64,000 nt of DNA from Sulfolobales archaeon (GTDB lineage: Archaea > Thermoproteota > Thermoprotei_A > Sulfolobales > AG1), in NCBI GenBank assembly GCA_038867615.1, contig JAWBYA010000001.1, forward strand, positions 1-64,000. Reading direction: 5' to 3'. The translations under genes were made by a program, and so were the position numbers. Numbering within the stretch: the first letter of the stretch is position 1; each line of letters begins with the position of its first letter. The notes beneath the pieces were generated by a model. The model was not told the origin of the DNA. It saw only the letters and a program-made list of their open reading frames with translations, and ran no database searches. Shown one piece after another: positions 751 through 53,138 of this stretch.

Positions 751-2142
751 TCACCTGTAGTGTTCCATTCTAGATAGCCTCACCGTTTGTCCCTGGATGT
801 TCATTCCAATCATTTTATATTCATTCATGGTCTCATCCAGGGACTTCAACCTCGCCCACAGGGATCTTTTTATCCCCGTGGGTTCATGGGCTGCCGTCGA
901 GCCCAACGGCATGGGGCTCCCATCTAGGATTAGCCCTGGGTGGCTTGGAGCGCTGCTCCCATCACCACCCAGGGCTTTTAACAATAAATTATAGCATGCA
1001 ACGACATCCCTATGCCATTTCTCCCTACCTAGCGAGCATATACCTATTCTCGAGCCGTTATATTTTATTTCTGATCTATGTATTGGGCATTGCTTAGATG
1101 TATTCCTAGGATTAACATAGATTACTGGGACGCTGTGTTCTTTAGCCTTCTCCTCAATGGCTCTCTGGATGCCTTTAAACGCTGCTTGGAAGATCCTGTG
1201 TCTTAATTGCTCATCCCTAATCCTGGAGATCATGTTCTCAGCAGGCTTATCGCCGAGATCCTCGAGAACAACACCATATCCATGTTTTAATGCCTCTCTA
1301 ACGATTATGTTCGCTACCTTCCATCTGGTATTGTCTTTCTTTTCTTCCTCCCTAAGCTTCCTCAAGATCTTCCTCTTAGCACGGCATCTAGCATCGTAGA
1401 TCTTATCGTATTTCTCCTGAACCCTCTTCCTCCTATAATAATAGCCAAGTGTTATTTTCTCAATATTTGTTTCAAATAGATATACCTTTCTGTTTATAAG
1501 CACTGCTACATTATTCTCATTAACATCCACAGCTATATAACCACTAGGCTTATATAACCTAACATCCTTTCTAAAAATGAGATATATGATCAACCTTCTT
1601 TCCTTTCTATCAAGCTTTATCCTTGCCTCAGAAGCTAATCTCCAGCCGGAGTTGATATATTTATAGAATTGCTTGTGAGGAACTAGATCTACCTTGATCA
1701 ATCCTCTATGCGTTGATATAGCTATCCTTGTTAAGCCCTCAAGCCTCCATAGGTGGTCGTCAAGCCATATTGAGATCCTCTTAACACTTGGGTATTCCTT
1801 ATCTGTTGATCCCTCTTTCTTTAGTTTTAGGAAGCTCTTAACCCTCGTGGATGCGTCCTGGCATGCCGTGTGAACATAGTGTGATGGTAAATGTGGATAG
1901 AGGTTACGCATCTCCCTATATTTTAAAGCCCTAAGCTTTATGAAAGATTTTATCCCCTCCCTAGCAGAGTATATTACTAGCTGCTCATCAGTATTCCTAT
2001 ACATACCCTCAAGCTCTACAAAAACCCTGAACAGCTTCTTAGAAATCCTCTCAGACCTAACAATAACAGTCCTCGTAACAATCAAAGCATCTTCTTCGTC
2101 ATTAGTAAGCGCTAGGGATGCTTGTGGGAAGCAGCCCACCAA
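751..2142 (-). CDS. tnpB: RNA-guided endonuclease TnpB (family 2), catalytic D/E/D intact
   Basis: RuvC-I 'YIAVDVNENN', RuvC-II 'VVLEDL', 'NTSKQCPIH', RuvC-III 'WHRDVVACYNL'; start codon uncertain; ORF reads through the element right end. Confidence 0.9.
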   Translation of the reverse strand: MVGCFPQASLALTNDEEDALIVTRTVIVRSERISKKLFRVFVELEGMYRNTDEQLVIYSAREGIKSFIKLRALKYREMRNLYPHLPSHYVHTACQDASTRVKSFLKLKKEGSTDKEYPSVKRISIWLDDHLWRLEGLTRIAISTHRGLIKVDLVPHKQFYKYINSGWRLASEARIKLDRKERRLIIYLIFRKDVRLYKPSGYIAVDVNENNVAVLINRKVYLFETNIEKITLGYYYRRKRVQEKYDKIYDARCRAKRKILRKLREEEKKDNTRWKVANIIVREALKHGYGVVLEDLGDKPAENMISRIRDEQLRHRIFQAAFKGIQRAIEEKAKEHSVPVIYVNPRNTSKQCPIHRSEIKYNGSRIGICSLGREKWHRDVVACYNLLLKALGGDGSSAPSHPGLILDGSPMPLGSTAAHEPTGIKRSLWARLKSLDETMNEYKMIGMNIQGQTVRLSRMEHYR

Positions 2143-8966: not shown

Positions 8967-9312
8967 GTCGTAGCCAACTGTTTCGGGTTCCATGATGGTT
9001 TATAGGGGTTTATATTAAACCCGGGTTCTGCAGTAATGTAACCTTATATAAGCTCTTATATTTCACTGGGATGCCGCCCAACAATGATTGTAGAGATATG
9101 GATTCGAGTGGGCGGGGTAAAGGCAAAGAGAGCCAGGATGAGTTTTTCTACAGCTATGAGTCAGAGGTAAACTATGAAGGGGAGCTGTGGGTTGGGGTTT
9201 CTCTGGACGGGTAGAGGCCAATGATAAGAACCCCGATGAAAGGAGCCCTGAGGCCCACGAAGCCAAGGAAAGAGTGGTTGATAGAGAAGAGCCACGATGA
9301 AACCTGAACCCC
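8967..9312 (+). mobile_element. Family-1 MITE (copy B): left end, promoter, omegaRNA-like scaffold
   Basis: GTCGTAGCCAACTGTTTCGGG ... TTATATAA (9044-9051) ... GAAACCTGAACCCC; 3' part homologous to 12510-12700. Confidence 0.88.
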
Positions 9313-9355
9313 GCTTTTATCCTTCCATAGGGATCTAGATGCTGAGAGAAATACA

Positions 9356-10696: not shown

Positions 10697-11036
10697 GGCT
10701 GTTTTCTTTTTGATATATAGGGAGATTAATAGGCTTTGGAAATTTTCATGGGTATTGGGGCATGCCTGGAGGCTGCTTCCCCGCCAACACCTAAGGGTAT
10801 TTATAAGCCTTGAAAGATAATGTCCTCGGTGTGGGTCTCCCCACACAGGTCTCGGGTGGTGATGGGAGCAGTGCTCCAAGCCACCCGGGGCTCAACCTAG
10901 ATGGGAGCCGCGTGCTGTTCGGCTCGACGACCGCCCATGAACCCACAGGATTAGAGATCCTGAGGGTTGAGGTGGAAGTCCCTGGATAAGACCATGAATA
11001 AAAAGATGATTGGAATGAACATCCAGGGACAAACAG
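10697..11036 (+). mobile_element. Family-2 MITE inside tsaA
   Basis: Ends match the 783-2282 element; TTTATAAG at 10800, then scaffold GGGTGGTGATGGGAGCAGTGCTCCAAGCCACCC...GTCCCTGGAT/ATCCAGGGAC. Confidence 0.9.
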
Positions 11037-11133
11037 TTGGGTCTGTACGGCGAGTCGGTGCAGAAAACACCCACCATAGGTACTTCTTCCTCAGACAGTC
11101 CAAGCCTGATCAGTCTTTTAGGCCTCACCTTAA

Positions 11134-12700
11134 GCCGTAGCTAACTGTTTCGGATTTCATAGAAGTTTGTATGGATTGATATCAGTTTACGGTTAAGAGG
11201 GTTTGCTGAGGTCTGGGGAGATTATTAAGTTAGGTATTGCTGAAAAAAGTAGCCTGGATAGGTATTTGGGTGTAGGAATTAGGATCTATTGAGGTGTGAA
11301 AGCCAGCTAAGCCCTGTATTGTGGGTTGGGAGTAACATTATATAAGGGGTTATTATTAATTGAGCAGAGACCATGGAAAACTTGCTAGAGACTCGCGAGG
11401 TTGTTAGAACATATAGCGTGCCAATAAACGATGATAGGGTTGAGGATCTGATCACATGGTATGCTGAGATGCTCCAGAAAACAATAGAAAAGATATGGAA
11501 TAACATTATATGGGAGTATAGATTCCCAGAGATAGTTAGGAAGAAGAGAGGAATTAGAGTTAAGATCGGGAGGAAGATCAGGGTTCCAAAAATACCCAGC
11601 GACAAGAACTTTAAGAATAACCTCAGGGATTCCTTATTAACACAATGCCCTTACGCTAAACACTGGGTAGACGCTGTTATCAGAACAGCATACTCTATAA
11701 TCAGTTCTTGGAGGAAGAGGTATCTAAAAGGAAAGGCTAGAAAGACAAAACCAAGGATTAGGAGGAGGTTCGCAAGATGCAAGATAACACTAATGAGTAT
11801 GGATTATGAGAGAAAAATAATAAGAGTAACGTTGAAGCCGGGAGAGTATCTGGAGATCTCTTGGGCTAATAGGTGGTTCGTTAATAGGGTTAGAAATTGG
11901 AGCGTAGGAGAGATCATCATAAAGGATGATAGAGTTCTAATACCATTTAAGAGGAATGAGGTAGAGGTAATAGAGGATCTTGTTGCTTGGGATTCTAACG
12001 AGCTATCACTAGATGGATACTCACCTAGCAGGGGCTTTATAAAAGTCGATCTGAGATATCTGCAGAGTATAAAGATAGTCTATGAGGGGAAGAAGGCAAA
12101 AGCACAGTCAATCGGGAAGAGAGAGCTTTTTGAGAAATACTCTAGGAGGGAGAGGAATAGGGAGAAAGATTTCATAAACAAGCTAGTAAAACAGATAGCA
12201 ATACTATTACCAAAAGCAATACATATACTAGAGGATCTTGAGAAAGAGGATATGGTTAGAAAGGGAGAGGTTGAGAAAAATAGGAGGAAGAGGAACTCAA
12301 GAACACCATGGAAACAAATACACAGAAAGCTATCGGAGAAAGCATTCATAGCAAAGGTATCTCCCAAGAATACTTCACGAACCTGCCCACAATGCGGGTA
12401 TATAGTAAAGACCCAAGTGGGCAGGATATTCAAGTGTAAGAAATGTGGTTTCGAACTAGATAGACAGAAACTCGCATCCCTAAACATATATCTAAAACAT
12501 CTAAAACACACCAAGATGTGGGGGTTCCCCCACAGCAATGAACCCGAGGAAATCTATGAAGGGGAGCTGTGGGTTGGGGTCACCCTGAACGGGTGGAGGC
12601 CAAGGATATGGGCCCCGATGATAGGGGCCCTGAGGCCTATGAAACCAAGGGAAGAGCGGTTGATATCATTTGATATCAACCGCTATGAAGCCCGAACCCC
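11134..12700 (+). mobile_element. Family-1 full-length TnpB-only element (copy C) inside tsaA
   Basis: Left end GCCGTAGCTAACTGTTTCGGATTTCAT, right end CTATGAAGCCCGAACCCC; removal restores the tsaA frame. Confidence 0.9.
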
Positions 12701-12746
12701 TCCTATCGCTTGGAACTATTTTGTGGAGATACGCGATCACTATTAA
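11373..12746 (+). CDS. tnpB: TnpB (family 1) with RuvC-III Asp to Gln substitution
   Basis: RuvC-I 'VAWDSNE', RuvC-II 'ILEDL', Zn finger CPQC..CKKC, RuvC-III 'LDRQKLASLNI'; TATA TTATATAA at 11338. Confidence 0.9.
   Translation: MENLLETREVVRTYSVPINDDRVEDLITWYAEMLQKTIEKIWNNIIWEYRFPEIVRKKRGIRVKIGRKIRVPKIPSDKNFKNNLRDSLLTQCPYAKHWVDAVIRTAYSIISSWRKRYLKGKARKTKPRIRRRFARCKITLMSMDYERKIIRVTLKPGEYLEISWANRWFVNRVRNWSVGEIIIKDDRVLIPFKRNEVEVIEDLVAWDSNELSLDGYSPSRGFIKVDLRYLQSIKIVYEGKKAKAQSIGKRELFEKYSRRERNREKDFINKLVKQIAILLPKAIHILEDLEKEDMVRKGEVEKNRRKRNSRTPWKQIHRKLSEKAFIAKVSPKNTSRTCPQCGYIVKTQVGRIFKCKKCGFELDRQKLASLNIYLKHLKHTKMWGFPHSNEPEEIYEGELWVGVTLNGWRPRIWAPMIGALRPMKPREERLISFDINRYEARTPPIAWNYFVEIRDHY
12510..12720 (+). 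ncRNA. Predicted omegaRNA (scaffold plus host-derived guide) of family-1 TnpB
   Basis: Hairpins GTGGGG/CCCCAC, GGGCCCC/GGGGCCC and perfect 14-bp AGCGGTTGATATCA-TT-TGATATCAACCGCT (12655-12684); this region is the part retained by the MITEs; guide position inferred from known TnpB biology. Confidence 0.7.
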
Positions 12747-14437: not shown

Positions 14438-14786
14438 GCCAAACCAGCTGCTTCGAGTTTCATGAGGGTTTATAAGGATTGATATTAAACTCGAGGTTCT
14501 GCAGTAATGTAACCTTATATAAGCTCTTATATTTCACTGGGATGCCCGCACAACAACGAGGGTGGGGATAGAGATCCAAGTGGGCGGGTTAAAATAAAAA
14601 CCAGGATGTGGGGGTTTCCCCACAGCTATGAGTCAGAGGTAAACTATGAAGGGGGGCTGTGGGTCGGGGTCACCCCGAATGGGTGGAGGCCAATGATAAG
14701 GGCCCCAATGATAGAGGCCCTGAGGCCCATGAAGCCATGGGAAGAGCGGTTGGTATAAAAATCAACTGCTATGAAGCCCGAACCCC
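14438..14786 (+). mobile_element. Family-1 MITE (copy D)
   Basis: GCCAAACCAGCTGCTTCGAG ... TTATATAA (14515) ... full scaffold ... CTATGAAGCCCGAACCCC. Confidence 0.9.
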
Positions 14787-15440
14787 AAGCCAGCCCAGCA
14801 CGCTCGATGCTGGTGCGTATACTACTATCAGCTCTAGCCATACTATATGGACTATGGTAGAACCCAAAACACCCTGTCTCGCTGCTACAAAGCCTGTTAC
14901 TATGCCAACAAAGAAAGCCCCGGCTATTAGGGGTGGATTGAGGGTTGGTATGTGGACTAGAGTGTAGTATAGGGATGAGAGGAGCATAGCTATAGAACCC
15001 CTAATCCCCAGGATCTCTGCTACAATGTAGCTTTGTACAAAGCCTCTCCAGAAGATCTCCTCCATAAGGCCTATAATAGCTAAATATAACGGTAACAGAT
15101 CTTTGTAACCCCCTATAGAGCTCTCGATAGACGTATAAACCATATCCACATAAGGCCATAACCCCATGAGGATCGAGATATACCCGCCAGCTATAAATAT
15201 AAAATATAGAACCACAGTCGCTATCATCGATAGGATCACTGTCGAGGATATCCAGCCCCTCAGCAAGATCTTCCGAAAATCGCTCCTCCTAGATATTATT
15301 AGTATAGATGTAAACCCCATAATGATCGTCGATATAGCCATCGATACTATGAACCTCTCTCTAAACACTATGAATGATAGTGGGAAGAAAAAGAGAGGCA
15401 TAGCAACTACTGCTAGATCTATTGCCCTATATCTAGGCAT
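14769..15440 (-). CDS. CPBP (CAAX/Abi) intramembrane metalloprotease
   Basis: 'EEIFWRG', 'YTLVH', 'H..W' motifs; stop codon lies inside MITE D. Confidence 0.85.
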   Translation of the reverse strand: MPRYRAIDLAVVAMPLFFFPLSFIVFRERFIVSMAISTIIMGFTSILIISRRSDFRKILLRGWISSTVILSMIATVVLYFIFIAGGYISILMGLWPYVDMVYTSIESSIGGYKDLLPLYLAIIGLMEEIFWRGFVQSYIVAEILGIRGSIAMLLSSLYYTLVHIPTLNPPLIAGAFFVGIVTGFVAARQGVLGSTIVHIVWLELIVVYAPASSVLGWLGVRAS

Positions 15441-20278: not shown

Positions 20279-20539
20279 GCCATAGCCAGCTGTTTCAGGT
20301 TTCATGATGGTTTATAGGGGTTTATATTAAACCCGGGTTCTGCAGTAATGGAACACTATATAAGCTCTTATATTTCACTGGGATGCCGCCCAACAATGAG
20401 GGTGGGGATAGAGATCCAAGTGGGCGGGTTAAATAAAAACCAGGATGTGGGGGTTTCCCCACAGCATTGAGCTGAGGCCGAGGAAGCCATGGGAAGAGCG
20501 GTTGATATCAAAAATCAACTGCTATGAAGCCCGAACCCC
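20279..20539 (+). mobile_element. Family-1 MITE with internal scaffold deletion (copy F)
   Basis: Near-identical to copies A/B/D; lacks about 90 nt of the central scaffold. Confidence 0.9.
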
Positions 20540-20584
20540 GTAAAGATATAAGGAATGGTACTAGAACGCAGAATAGCTACTTTA

Positions 20585-50010: not shown

Positions 50011-50093
50011 TTACTCCACCATCCTAATAATCTCCAAAGGAAGTATTAAATGGGGCTGGGGGTTCTAGCCAGGCTATGCATCGTAGCATTATA

Positions 50094-51743
50094 GCCGTAG
50101 CTAACTGTTTCGGATTTCATGAAGGTTTGTATGGGTTGATATCAGTTACGGTTAAGAGAGTTTGCTGGGATCTGGAGAGATATGGGAGGCTGGAGATCGG
50201 TTGGGTTTGGTAGTGGTTGGGAGGGCTGTATGTCTGTGGAGGGTAGTAGATAGAGGTTTGGGGGGAGATGTTGGGAAGATATAGGTATTGCTAAAAAGAG
50301 TAGCCTGGACAAGTATTTAGGTATAGAATAGGATCTATTGAGGTGTGGAAGCCAGCTAAGCCCTGTATTGTGGGTTGGGAGTAACATAAATATAAGGGGT
50401 TATTATTAATTGAGCAGAGGCCATGGAAAACACGCTAAAGACTCGCGAGGTTGTTAGGACATATAGTGTGCTAATAAGTGATGATAGGGTTGGGGATCTG
50501 ATCACATGGTATACTGAGATGCTCCAGAGAACAATAGAAAAAAATATGGAATAACATTATATGGAAGTACAAATTCCCAGAGATAGTTAAAAAAGAGAAA
50601 AGAATCAGAGTAAAGATCGGGGGGAAGATCAGGGTTCCAAAAATACCTAGCGACAAGAACTTTAAGAAGAACCTCAGGGATTCCCTATTAACACAATGCC
50701 CTTATGCTAGGCACTGGGTTGATAGCTTGATTAGAACAGCATACTCTATAATCAATTCATGGAGGAAGAGATATCTAAAAGGAAAGGCTAGGAAGACGAT
50801 GCCTAGGATTAGGAGGAGGTTTGCTAGATGCAAAATAACACTAATGAGAATAGATTATGAGAGAAGAATAATAAGAGTAACTCTAAAGCCTGGTGAGTAT
50901 CTAGAGATCTCGTGGGCTAACAGGTGGTTTATCAACAGGGTTAGAGATTGGAATGTTGGAGAGATCATTATAAAGGATAACAGGATCCTAATACCATTCA
51001 AGAAGAACGAGGTAGAGATAATAGAGGATCTTGTTGCATGGGACTCTAACGAGCTTTCGCTAGATGGATACTCACCTAGCAGGGGCTTTATAAAAGTCGA
51101 TCTGAGATATCTGCAGAGTATAAAGATAGTCTATGAGGGGAAGAAGGCAAAAGCACAGTCGCTCGGGAAGAGAGAGCTTTTTGAGAAATACTCTAGGAGG
51201 GAGAGGAATAAGGAGAAGGACTTCATAAACAAGCTAGCAAAACAAATAACAATACTATTCCCAAAAGCATTTACATATACTAGAGGATCTTGAGAAAGAG
51301 GATATGGTGAGGAGAGGAGAGGTTGATAAGGCTAGGAGGAAGAGAAACTCAAGAACACCATGGAAACAGATACACAGAAAACTCTCAGAAAAAGCATTCA
51401 TAGCAAAAATATCTCCCAAGAATACCTCTAGAACCTGCCCACAATGCGGGTATATAGTAAAGACCCAAGTGGGCAGGATATTCAAATGTAAGAAATGCGG
51501 CTTCAAACTAGATAGGCAGAAACTAGCATCAATAAACATATATCTAAAATACACCAGGATGTGGGGGTTTCCCCACAGCTATGAGCCTGAGATATCCTAT
51601 GAAGGGGAGCTGTGGGTCGGGGTCACCCTGAACGGGTGGAGGCCGAGGATAAGGGCCCCAATGATAGAGGCCCTGAGGCCTATGAAACCAAGGGAAGAGC
51701 GGTTGATATCGCTCGACATCAACCGCTATGAAACCCGAACCCC
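50094..51743 (+). mobile_element. Family-1 full-length element (copy G) in the psmB-rps7 divergent region
   Basis: Same ends as copy C; about 90 bp longer leader. Confidence 0.9.
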
Positions 51744-51747
51744 TTAA
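50423..51747 (+). pseudogene. tnpB: Frameshifted family-1 tnpB
   Basis: Closely matches 11373-12746; +1 frameshifts at the A7 run near 50540 and near 51270; also LDRQK. Confidence 0.9.
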
Positions 51748-52588: not shown

Positions 52589-52665
52589 TGGTGGGCCCGG
52601 GGGGATTTGAACCCCCGACCCCCCGGTTATCAGCCGGGTGCTCCACCAGGCTGAGCTACGGGCCC
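52589..52665 (-). tRNA. tRNA-Ile (GAU), intron-less, CCA encoded
   Basis: GGGCCCGTAGCTCAGCCTGGTGGAGCACCCGGCT-GAT-AACCGGGGGGTCGGGGGTTCAAATCCCCCCGGGCCCACCA. Confidence 0.96.
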
Positions 52666-52791
52666 ACCATTTATCTTTATATTCCAAGCCCTATAACTTT
52701 CAACACTGTAGATCTATATGTGCGGTCTTAAAGCTAGATACTCGTGTGCCCTGATATAACTCGCACTAGACATATCTATCGATGATTATTG

Positions 52792-53138
52792 GGGGTTCAA
52801 GCCTCATATAGGTTGATCAAAGTATCAACAGCGCTTCTCATTGTTTCACAGGCCTCGGGGCCATCTGTCATTGAGGCCCTTATCCTTGGTATCCGCCGTT
52901 AGGGGTTGCACCATCCCAACTACATTTACCGTTTTGCCCTGGTTATTGCTTAGGAAGCACTATATCCGTGTTCTCTTTATCCACCCCGCTATCTACACGC
53001 CCCTCGGGTCTTTATAGCTACCCATTGTTAGACTGATATCCCCATAGAATAATAGAGCCATGCTATGTTCCCACAGAACTACATACTTAGTATTATTCCT
53101 TGTAAACACTCTTGAAACTCGAAGCAATTGGCTATAGC
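52792..53138 (-). mobile_element. Degenerate family-1 MITE (copy I)
   Basis: Plus strand GGGGTTCAAGCCTCATATAGGTTGATC..ATCAACAGCGCTTC (right end) and TAAACACTCTTGAAACTCGAAGCAATTGGCTATAGC (left end). Confidence 0.72.

Follow-up and report, generated by a model that had tools for sequence, protein, structure and literature searches.

Does a TnpB protein whose third catalytic aspartate has been replaced by glutamine still cut DNA? The question is raised by a transposon in a 64,000-nt stretch of the genome of a hot-spring Sulfolobales archaeon (GCA_038867615.1, contig JAWBYA010000001.1, positions 1 to 64,000; hereafter, the window, and G000 for the genome, which is 94% complete). The transposon carries an intact tnpB gene (11373..12746, + strand, as are all features of this element) encoding a protein of 457 aa. 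DNA cutting is regarded as the sole way in which a TnpB benefits its transposon. The canonical TnpB triad is Asp-Glu-Asp, and this protein reads D207-E287-Q365. We find that the glutamine is, judging from sequence comparisons, an old, clade-wide state that spans several archaeal phyla and is held by purifying selection. We put at about an even chance the reading that we favor, namely that the protein is an altered but working TnpB nuclease of a transposase-less IS607-type element.

We examined the active site in two alignments, A1 (58 sequences) and A2 (42 sequences), and in structural comparisons. The protein has the hallmarks of TnpB, a TNB zinc-ribbon domain (PF07282, Cas12f1-like; Pfam E 7.9e-14) and a RuvC/Cas12f-like fold. 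An AlphaFold2 model built from the 58-sequence alignment had a mean predicted local distance difference test score (pLDDT) of 74.9, with a confident RuvC core and values below 50 for residues 380-457, and its best Foldseek matches were structures of Cas12f, Fanzor2 and TnpB (E 3e-13 to 1e-5). The RuvC-I aspartate D207 (11991..11993) is invariant in both alignments, and the RuvC-II glutamate E287 (12231..12233) does not vary in A1 and reaches a conservation of at least 90% in A2. The four cysteines of the C4 zinc finger (C338, C341, C355 and C358; 12384..12446) are invariant in A1, as are R364 and N371. At the RuvC-III position the catalytic aspartate is replaced by Q365 (codon CAG, 12465..12467). 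HMMER aligned the query stretch ELDRQKLASLNI to Cas12f SANADFNASQNI with no gaps across the motif, which places Q365 opposite the aspartate of NADFNASQNI, and the family profile, kiDRqlnAaiNi at this point, aligned without gaps to THDRDENAALNI of ISDra2 TnpB, where the ISDra2 stretch reads HDRDENAALNI. Because both alignments are gapless, Q365 sits at the position of the RuvC-III aspartate. A search of the PDB with the A2 profile matched ISDra2 TnpB at E 9e-27.

An earlier note, made from the letters of the window alone, had claimed that both family-1 tnpB genes carry DRQ with the RuvC-I aspartate and RuvC-II glutamate kept, and that the TnpB of a second family retains HRD. All three readings held. 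The motif of the 11373-12746 protein can be summarized as CGFELDRQKLASLNI, with D207 and E287 both retained and invariant in the 58-sequence alignment; its translated open reading frame (ORF) includes CPQCGYIVKTQVGRIFKCKKCGFELDRQKLASLNI, the second family-1 copy (50423-51747) reads CKKCGFKLDRQKLASINI, both fitting the DRQ pattern that the note gave, and the family-2 protein (751-2142, minus strand) has WHRDVVACYNLL. Of the two family-1 genes, the second is a pseudogene within a further element (50089..51744, + strand) that has 89% nucleotide identity to the first; it is broken by frame changes and by TAG and TAA stops and still encodes DRQ. The genome as a whole holds one intact family-1 gene, this broken one and one paralog on contig C6 (43% identity, also DRQ), together with two family-2 genes, up to 43 family-2 right-end copies and 18 family-2 left-end copies. 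The description of family 1 as the most abundant TnpB family stood only in part, as family 1 is ahead by a narrow count of 49 right ends against up to 43. In the family-2 TnpB (751-2142, minus strand, in the window, and about 203360 on G000 C2), where HRD is canonical, the zinc finger looks degenerate (CPIH...C..G).

A check proposed along with those readings, whether the glutamine is clade-wide, came out positive, and the substitution is not private to this genome. Among 122 close relatives (the best 120 of 245 proteins from a word-indexed search at E <= 1e-5, plus the query and the C6 paralog), the RuvC-III column holds glutamine in 113, histidine in 9 and aspartate in none. We also searched a set of 50%-identity representatives exhaustively, which gave 1099 proteins at E <= 0.001, 150 of which were considered. 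Taking one in six of the close relatives and all other retrieved proteins, in each case those of 330 aa or more, we then composed a sample of 150 rows, in which the triad is D-E-Q in 124, D-E-H in 10, D-G-H in 1 and D-E-D in 10; the other 5, truncated or misaligned at the RuvC-III column, were left out. A FastTree phylogeny of the 145 rows, computed with the Q column removed, groups 122 rows in one clade with a local support of 97 (118 Q, 3 H and a single D nested within the Q clade) and 21 rows in a mixed group (9 D, 8 H and 4 Q). The distribution of D, H and Q on this tree needs at least 9 state changes, compared with a mean of 20.5 when states are shuffled, and the path from Asp to His to Gln can be traveled in single-base steps (GAY, CAY, CAR).

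By name, the sources of the members include Desulfurococcales-like archaea, Ignisphaera, Methanomethylicia, Asgard archaea, Methanoperedens and others. Within the order the family is patchy, with matches at E <= 1e-30 in 26 of 121 genomes, G000 included, and mostly one to four per genome. One Desulfurococcales metagenome-assembled genome (MAG) holds about 30 family-1 loci, many of them at contig ends, and all four that we opened (L075, L079, L088 and L092) are stopped early, which looks like a burst followed by decay.

Substitution patterns point to continued maintenance of the gene. The ratio of nonsynonymous to synonymous substitution rates (dN/dS), taken from 19 related gene pairs whose synonymous sites are not saturated, is 0.11-0.20 in the body of the protein (residues 5-376). 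It is 0.20-0.63 in the tail (residues 380-440), which overlaps the RNA scaffold described below and has the lower synonymous divergence in 13 of the 19 pairs. Of 19 related loci, 17 encode the glutamine as CAG and 2 as CAA, and the ORF is open across the whole match in 14 of the 27 full-length related loci examined. On such codon-level measures, tnpB 11373..12746 is maintained by selection and is no relic.

The family to which the element belongs was identified from its relatives. Ten loci fetched from other genomes of the order included eight recognizable TnpBs, seven with glutamine and one with aspartate. In six of the ten an ORF with a MerR-type helix-turn-helix (HTH) and a resolvase domain lies directly upstream of tnpB, overlapping it in most cases, and Pfam confirmed this serine transposase in all three ORFs tested. 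DRQ is intact in five of these six transposase-linked loci; the sixth (L107) is truncated, and the motif was not found in it. IS607-type elements of other genomes (five of five) start with GCCGT..CAGTTTC and end with ATGAAGC(C/T)CAAACCCC, the termini of the window's element. Autonomous relatives with the same ends thus pair a serine transposase with a DRQ TnpB, and from these shared ends it follows that the window's element is a transposase-less member of the archaeal IS607-type family. A serine transposase with an N-terminal MerR-type HTH is absent from it, and no ORF above 29 aa lies between its left end and tnpB. The only resolvase in G000 (contig C23) is a stand-alone gene with a C-terminal HTH by translation and is not linked to tnpB. 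The Y1 HUH transposase TnpA (PF01797) had no match in the 94%-complete genome; a Y1 transposase stands beside a different TnpB type in two of five relatives' genomes.

The ends of the element are well defined. Its left end (GTAGCTAACTGTTTCGG..., 11137..11190) is common to copy 2 and to about 16 dispersed left-end copies, and adjoins a target motif, or one resembling a transposon-adjacent motif (TAM), AAGCC (11132..11136), whose final CC is an overlap shared with the right end. This motif was derived from left-end flanks, which in the 16 copies mostly finish in (A)AGCC or NGCC, and from an empty site. The stretch common to copies 1 and 2 is 11130-12701 (about 89% identity), and the right end lies at 12700. 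Several of the left ends in the genome are paired with right ends as elements of ~350 bp; about 20 of the 49 right ends span some 190 nt, and the remainder are shorter.

The right end (12510..12700) is a predicted guide RNA (omega RNA) scaffold, on the evidence of its 49 genomic copies, its fold and its covariation. Its RNA fold has a z-score of -4.86, and a comparison of 28 copies reveals changes on both sides in 10 of the 33 consensus pairs. The scaffold ends in a hairpin followed by ATGAAGCCCGAACCCC, beyond which the copies diverge. The 20 nt of flanking DNA immediately 3' of it (12701..12720) are the predicted guide, where copy identity stops and where the order of TAM and target at empty sites would place it. 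A structured right-end scaffold followed by a flank-derived guide, both here predicted RNA, is what is expected of a TnpB element. Rfam assigned no family to the right end and found only one tRNA elsewhere in the window. The scaffold lies entirely within coding sequence: the tnpB stop codon falls 46 nt past the transposon end, and the final 15 codons come from flanking DNA. The last 15 residues of the protein therefore vary with the insertion site.

Insertion takes place beside (A)AGCC and duplicates nothing, and the element has moved among closely related genomes. A locus that is filled in a same-genus MAG (L031) is empty in G000 (C2:202715), the two reading GGAGCC-GTAGC...GAACCCC-TCCTTC and GGAGCC|TCCTTC. 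No target sequence is duplicated beyond the shared CC (GGAG[CC]TCC versus GGAG[CC]GTAGC...GAACC[CC]TCC), and a two-base core shared by both ends is the habit of IS607 elements. An empty allele of the window's own copy is weakly hinted at by a single hot-spring metagenome contig in which 11134 is followed directly by 12700 (depth 7.2, one mismatch, 30 nt on the shorter side). A second site (L032) is filled in a same-genus genome; G000 has ~540 bp there (C4:140642-141182) that are absent beside the relative's element, and so offers no simple empty site.

If the protein is a working nuclease, it would mature its own guide RNA and cut the emptied donor site wherever TAM and guide match, and the element would be copied back by repair. 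The glutamine amide would take the place of the aspartate as a ligand of metal A, with lower or Mn-dependent activity as the likely cost. The same topological position of the RNase H fold varies between Asp and His in other enzymes. Activity is favored by long purifying selection inside mobile elements, including autonomous ones, and by the way D, H and Q replace one another across the tree. The text of a 2023 census of TnpB diversity holds that conserved RuvC-III alterations probably retain activity (Altae-Tran et al., PMC10691335), and one TnpB with a rearranged RuvC-II has been shown to cut DNA (PMC10278001). The earlier note had called RuvC-III apparently inactivated; the altered chemistry that it named as an alternative is at least as likely, and inactivation is unproven.

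Several points weigh against a working nuclease. Changing any triad residue to alanine is described as abolishing TnpB cleavage (10.1101/2023.11.30.569447), and the asparagine of the DxN motif is also gone in the close family (Leu 97, Val 14 and Asn 6 of 122). Cas12m2, like the Q clade, has a conserved non-canonical RuvC triad in a small protein of the Cas12/TnpB fold and has been shown to bind DNA without cutting it (PMC10442227), so the conservation of D207 and E287 is no proof of cutting; it differs in being CRISPR-associated and in its H-D-D triad, with positions I and II changed and not III. RuvC is also required for guide RNA processing (PMC10278001), and the conserved D and E could therefore serve RNA and not DNA. 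A compensating acidic residue, another check proposed at the outset, was sought by comparing alignment columns among Q, H and D rows, and none specific to the Q clade was found. The comparison picked out D214 and E392. All 124 Q rows have an acidic residue at D214, but its counterpart in ISDra2 TnpB is the TDG motif, which makes it no special mark of the Q clade; E392 belongs to the tail, where pLDDT is under 50 and the alignment is unreliable. In addition, the article texts searched contain no cleavage test of a DEQ or DEH TnpB, a transposase able to move the element was not found in the 94%-complete G000, and the family-1 copies in the genome are 84-90% identical, that is, old.

Part of this evidence also speaks for a site that no longer hydrolyzes DNA and a protein that acts as a transposon-borne, RNA-guided DNA binder. 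The loss of the metal-A carboxylate (and, in the close family, of the DxN asparagine), the failure to find a compensating acidic residue and the Cas12m2 precedent (PMC10442227) all suit such a protein, as does a gene under selection in a genome where the matching transposase was not found, and the reported role of RuvC in guide RNA processing (PMC10278001) could explain why D and E are kept. D207 and E287 might then hold one metal and the displaced strand, or process guide RNA from mRNA, while the protein might mark or shield the emptied donor site or aid the serine transposase. Against it, we know of no function for a non-cutting TnpB within a transposon, the clade still resides in mobile elements, some of them autonomous and equipped with a transposase, the tree shows D, H and Q replacing one another with one D nested among the Q rows, and the genomic lifestyle of family 1 equals that of family 2 with its canonical aspartate. 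We regard loss of cutting as possible, if somewhat unlikely. A fuller form of the idea would extend it to the whole archaeal clade: DNA hydrolysis would be lost, a one-metal D-E-Q site would cut the protein's own mRNA into guide RNA, and these RNA-guided binders in a selfish element might mark the emptied donor site or stay bound to it, or else direct the IS607 serine transposase, with the ~49 right ends as a source of extra guides in trans. That combination we consider unlikely.

The earlier note had further remarked on many dispersed guides near gene ends and suggested an RNA-guided regulator of the TldR type. The first observation stands. The 49 right ends are mostly intergenic, 38 of them falling outside crude genes, whereas random draws of 49 sites put a mean of 40.9 inside genes; a stop is no more than 60 nt away from 15 of them (200 random draws gave 4.6 on average and 13 at most), and a start no more than 60 nt away from 7. 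Together with one altered catalytic residue and a single intact gene in the genome, this would suit a domesticated gene that is fixed in the host and represses host genes via dispersed guides. TldRs do resemble this protein in their descent from TnpB and in having a changed catalytic residue, but as described they have at least two triad changes, often a C-terminal truncation, new gene partners, promoter-matching guides and no transposon ends (10.1101/2023.11.30.569447). The window's protein shares none of these features. It has a change at only one triad position and preserves the zinc finger, the RuvC-III helix and the C-terminus, while its element retains transposon ends and occupies a polymorphic site that differs within the genus and is not syntenic there. 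The guides are simply flanks, and their second matches (16-mers, up to 2 mismatches) number 195 versus 125 for reversed guides, a low-power comparison with no clear excess. Family 2, with its canonical Asp, has up to 43 right ends in the same genome, so that dispersed guides do not set the Q family apart; the position bias fits the survival of harmless intergenic insertions. The regulator proposal thus did not survive well, and we consider it very improbable. Hardly credible is a decaying relic without function in which glutamine is just one disabling change among many: the pseudogene in copy 2 and the many broken copies in one related genome are what decay would produce, but dN/dS of 0.11-0.20 contradicts it, as do the fixation of Q across phyla with synonymous codon use and the frames open through the match in 14 of 27 full-length related loci.

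Archaeal TnpB branches with an altered RuvC-III are already known and presumed active (PMC10691335). The census text describes six large branches of this kind, and its archaea-only branches include the serine-recombinase-associated Ser-6 as well as RIIIr-6, both nearly confined to archaea. These branches resemble the Q clade in belonging to transposons of archaea, in conserving a residue other than Asp at RuvC-III and in a link to serine recombinases, and judged from the text description, the Q clade is most likely one of the two. The only change that the census text names is Asp to His, in RIIIr-4; a Gln state is not mentioned in it, and the word glutamine occurs there once, in the passage seen as part of 'glutamine amidotransferase'. 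Literature word searches found no paper describing Gln at RuvC-III, although supplements may name the branch, and found no catalytic data for a Desulfurococcales-related TnpB. RIIIr-4, or RHH(MazE)-TnpB, shares with the Q clade a replaced RuvC-III Asp and a partly archaeal distribution, and as the census describes it differs in its His, in the absence of a C4 zinc finger and in a small RHH/AbrB gene that precedes tnpB (PMC10691335); in the window's element the residue is Gln, the C4 zinc finger is invariant, and any ORF ahead of tnpB is no longer than 29 aa. ISDra2 TnpB and Cas12f (8exa, 8h1j, 9nzq and others) agree with the window's protein in fold, zinc finger, RuvC-I and RuvC-II residues and a right-end guide RNA, and differ in their canonical D-E-D triad. 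ISDra2 is also mobilized by a Y1 transposase, whereas the window's family is linked to a serine transposase.

We also sought a connection to a characterized enzyme, SisTnpB1, for which only D187 and E271 are named. A match with P0137 (D187, E271 and Q348) was set aside as coincidence, the relatives of P0137 coming from Asgard and methanogen MAGs. In the serine-transposase-linked DRQ proteins the D-to-E spacing is 85, not 84, and no connection emerged.

The clade is thus large, old and still mobile over several archaeal phyla while lacking the third catalytic carboxylate. If RuvC tolerates an amide at metal A, knowing so would help in understanding small, thermostable editors and in engineering them; if the proteins do not cut, TnpB would benefit its transposon in a way not yet described. 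The window offers a clean natural example, with defined ends, a target motif, a guide scaffold and empty sites.

Other parts of the window carry traces of the same and of neighboring elements. By blastn, four gene-less, dispersed right-end copies lie in it, at 14600..14787 (+), 9150-9313 (+), 20472-20540 (+) and 52791-52918 (-). The gap between left end and tnpB varies: contigs from three metagenome runs skip 92 nt at 11187-11280, and copy 2 has about 100 additional bases at the corresponding place (50181-50282). Just upstream of the element, the translation of ORF 10967-11140 ends in ...MNKKMIGMNIQGQTV, like the C-terminus of the family-2 TnpB, and metagenome depth is high at 10800-11030, which suggests that a family-2 right-end copy borders the family-1 left end on its upstream side, as an insertion nested in it or next to it (10900-11140). 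A tRNA gene (52592-52665, -) lies ~130 nt from the right-end fragment at 52791-52918 (-), and a further right-end copy outside the window (G000 C2:300387) adjoins tRNA-like sequence.

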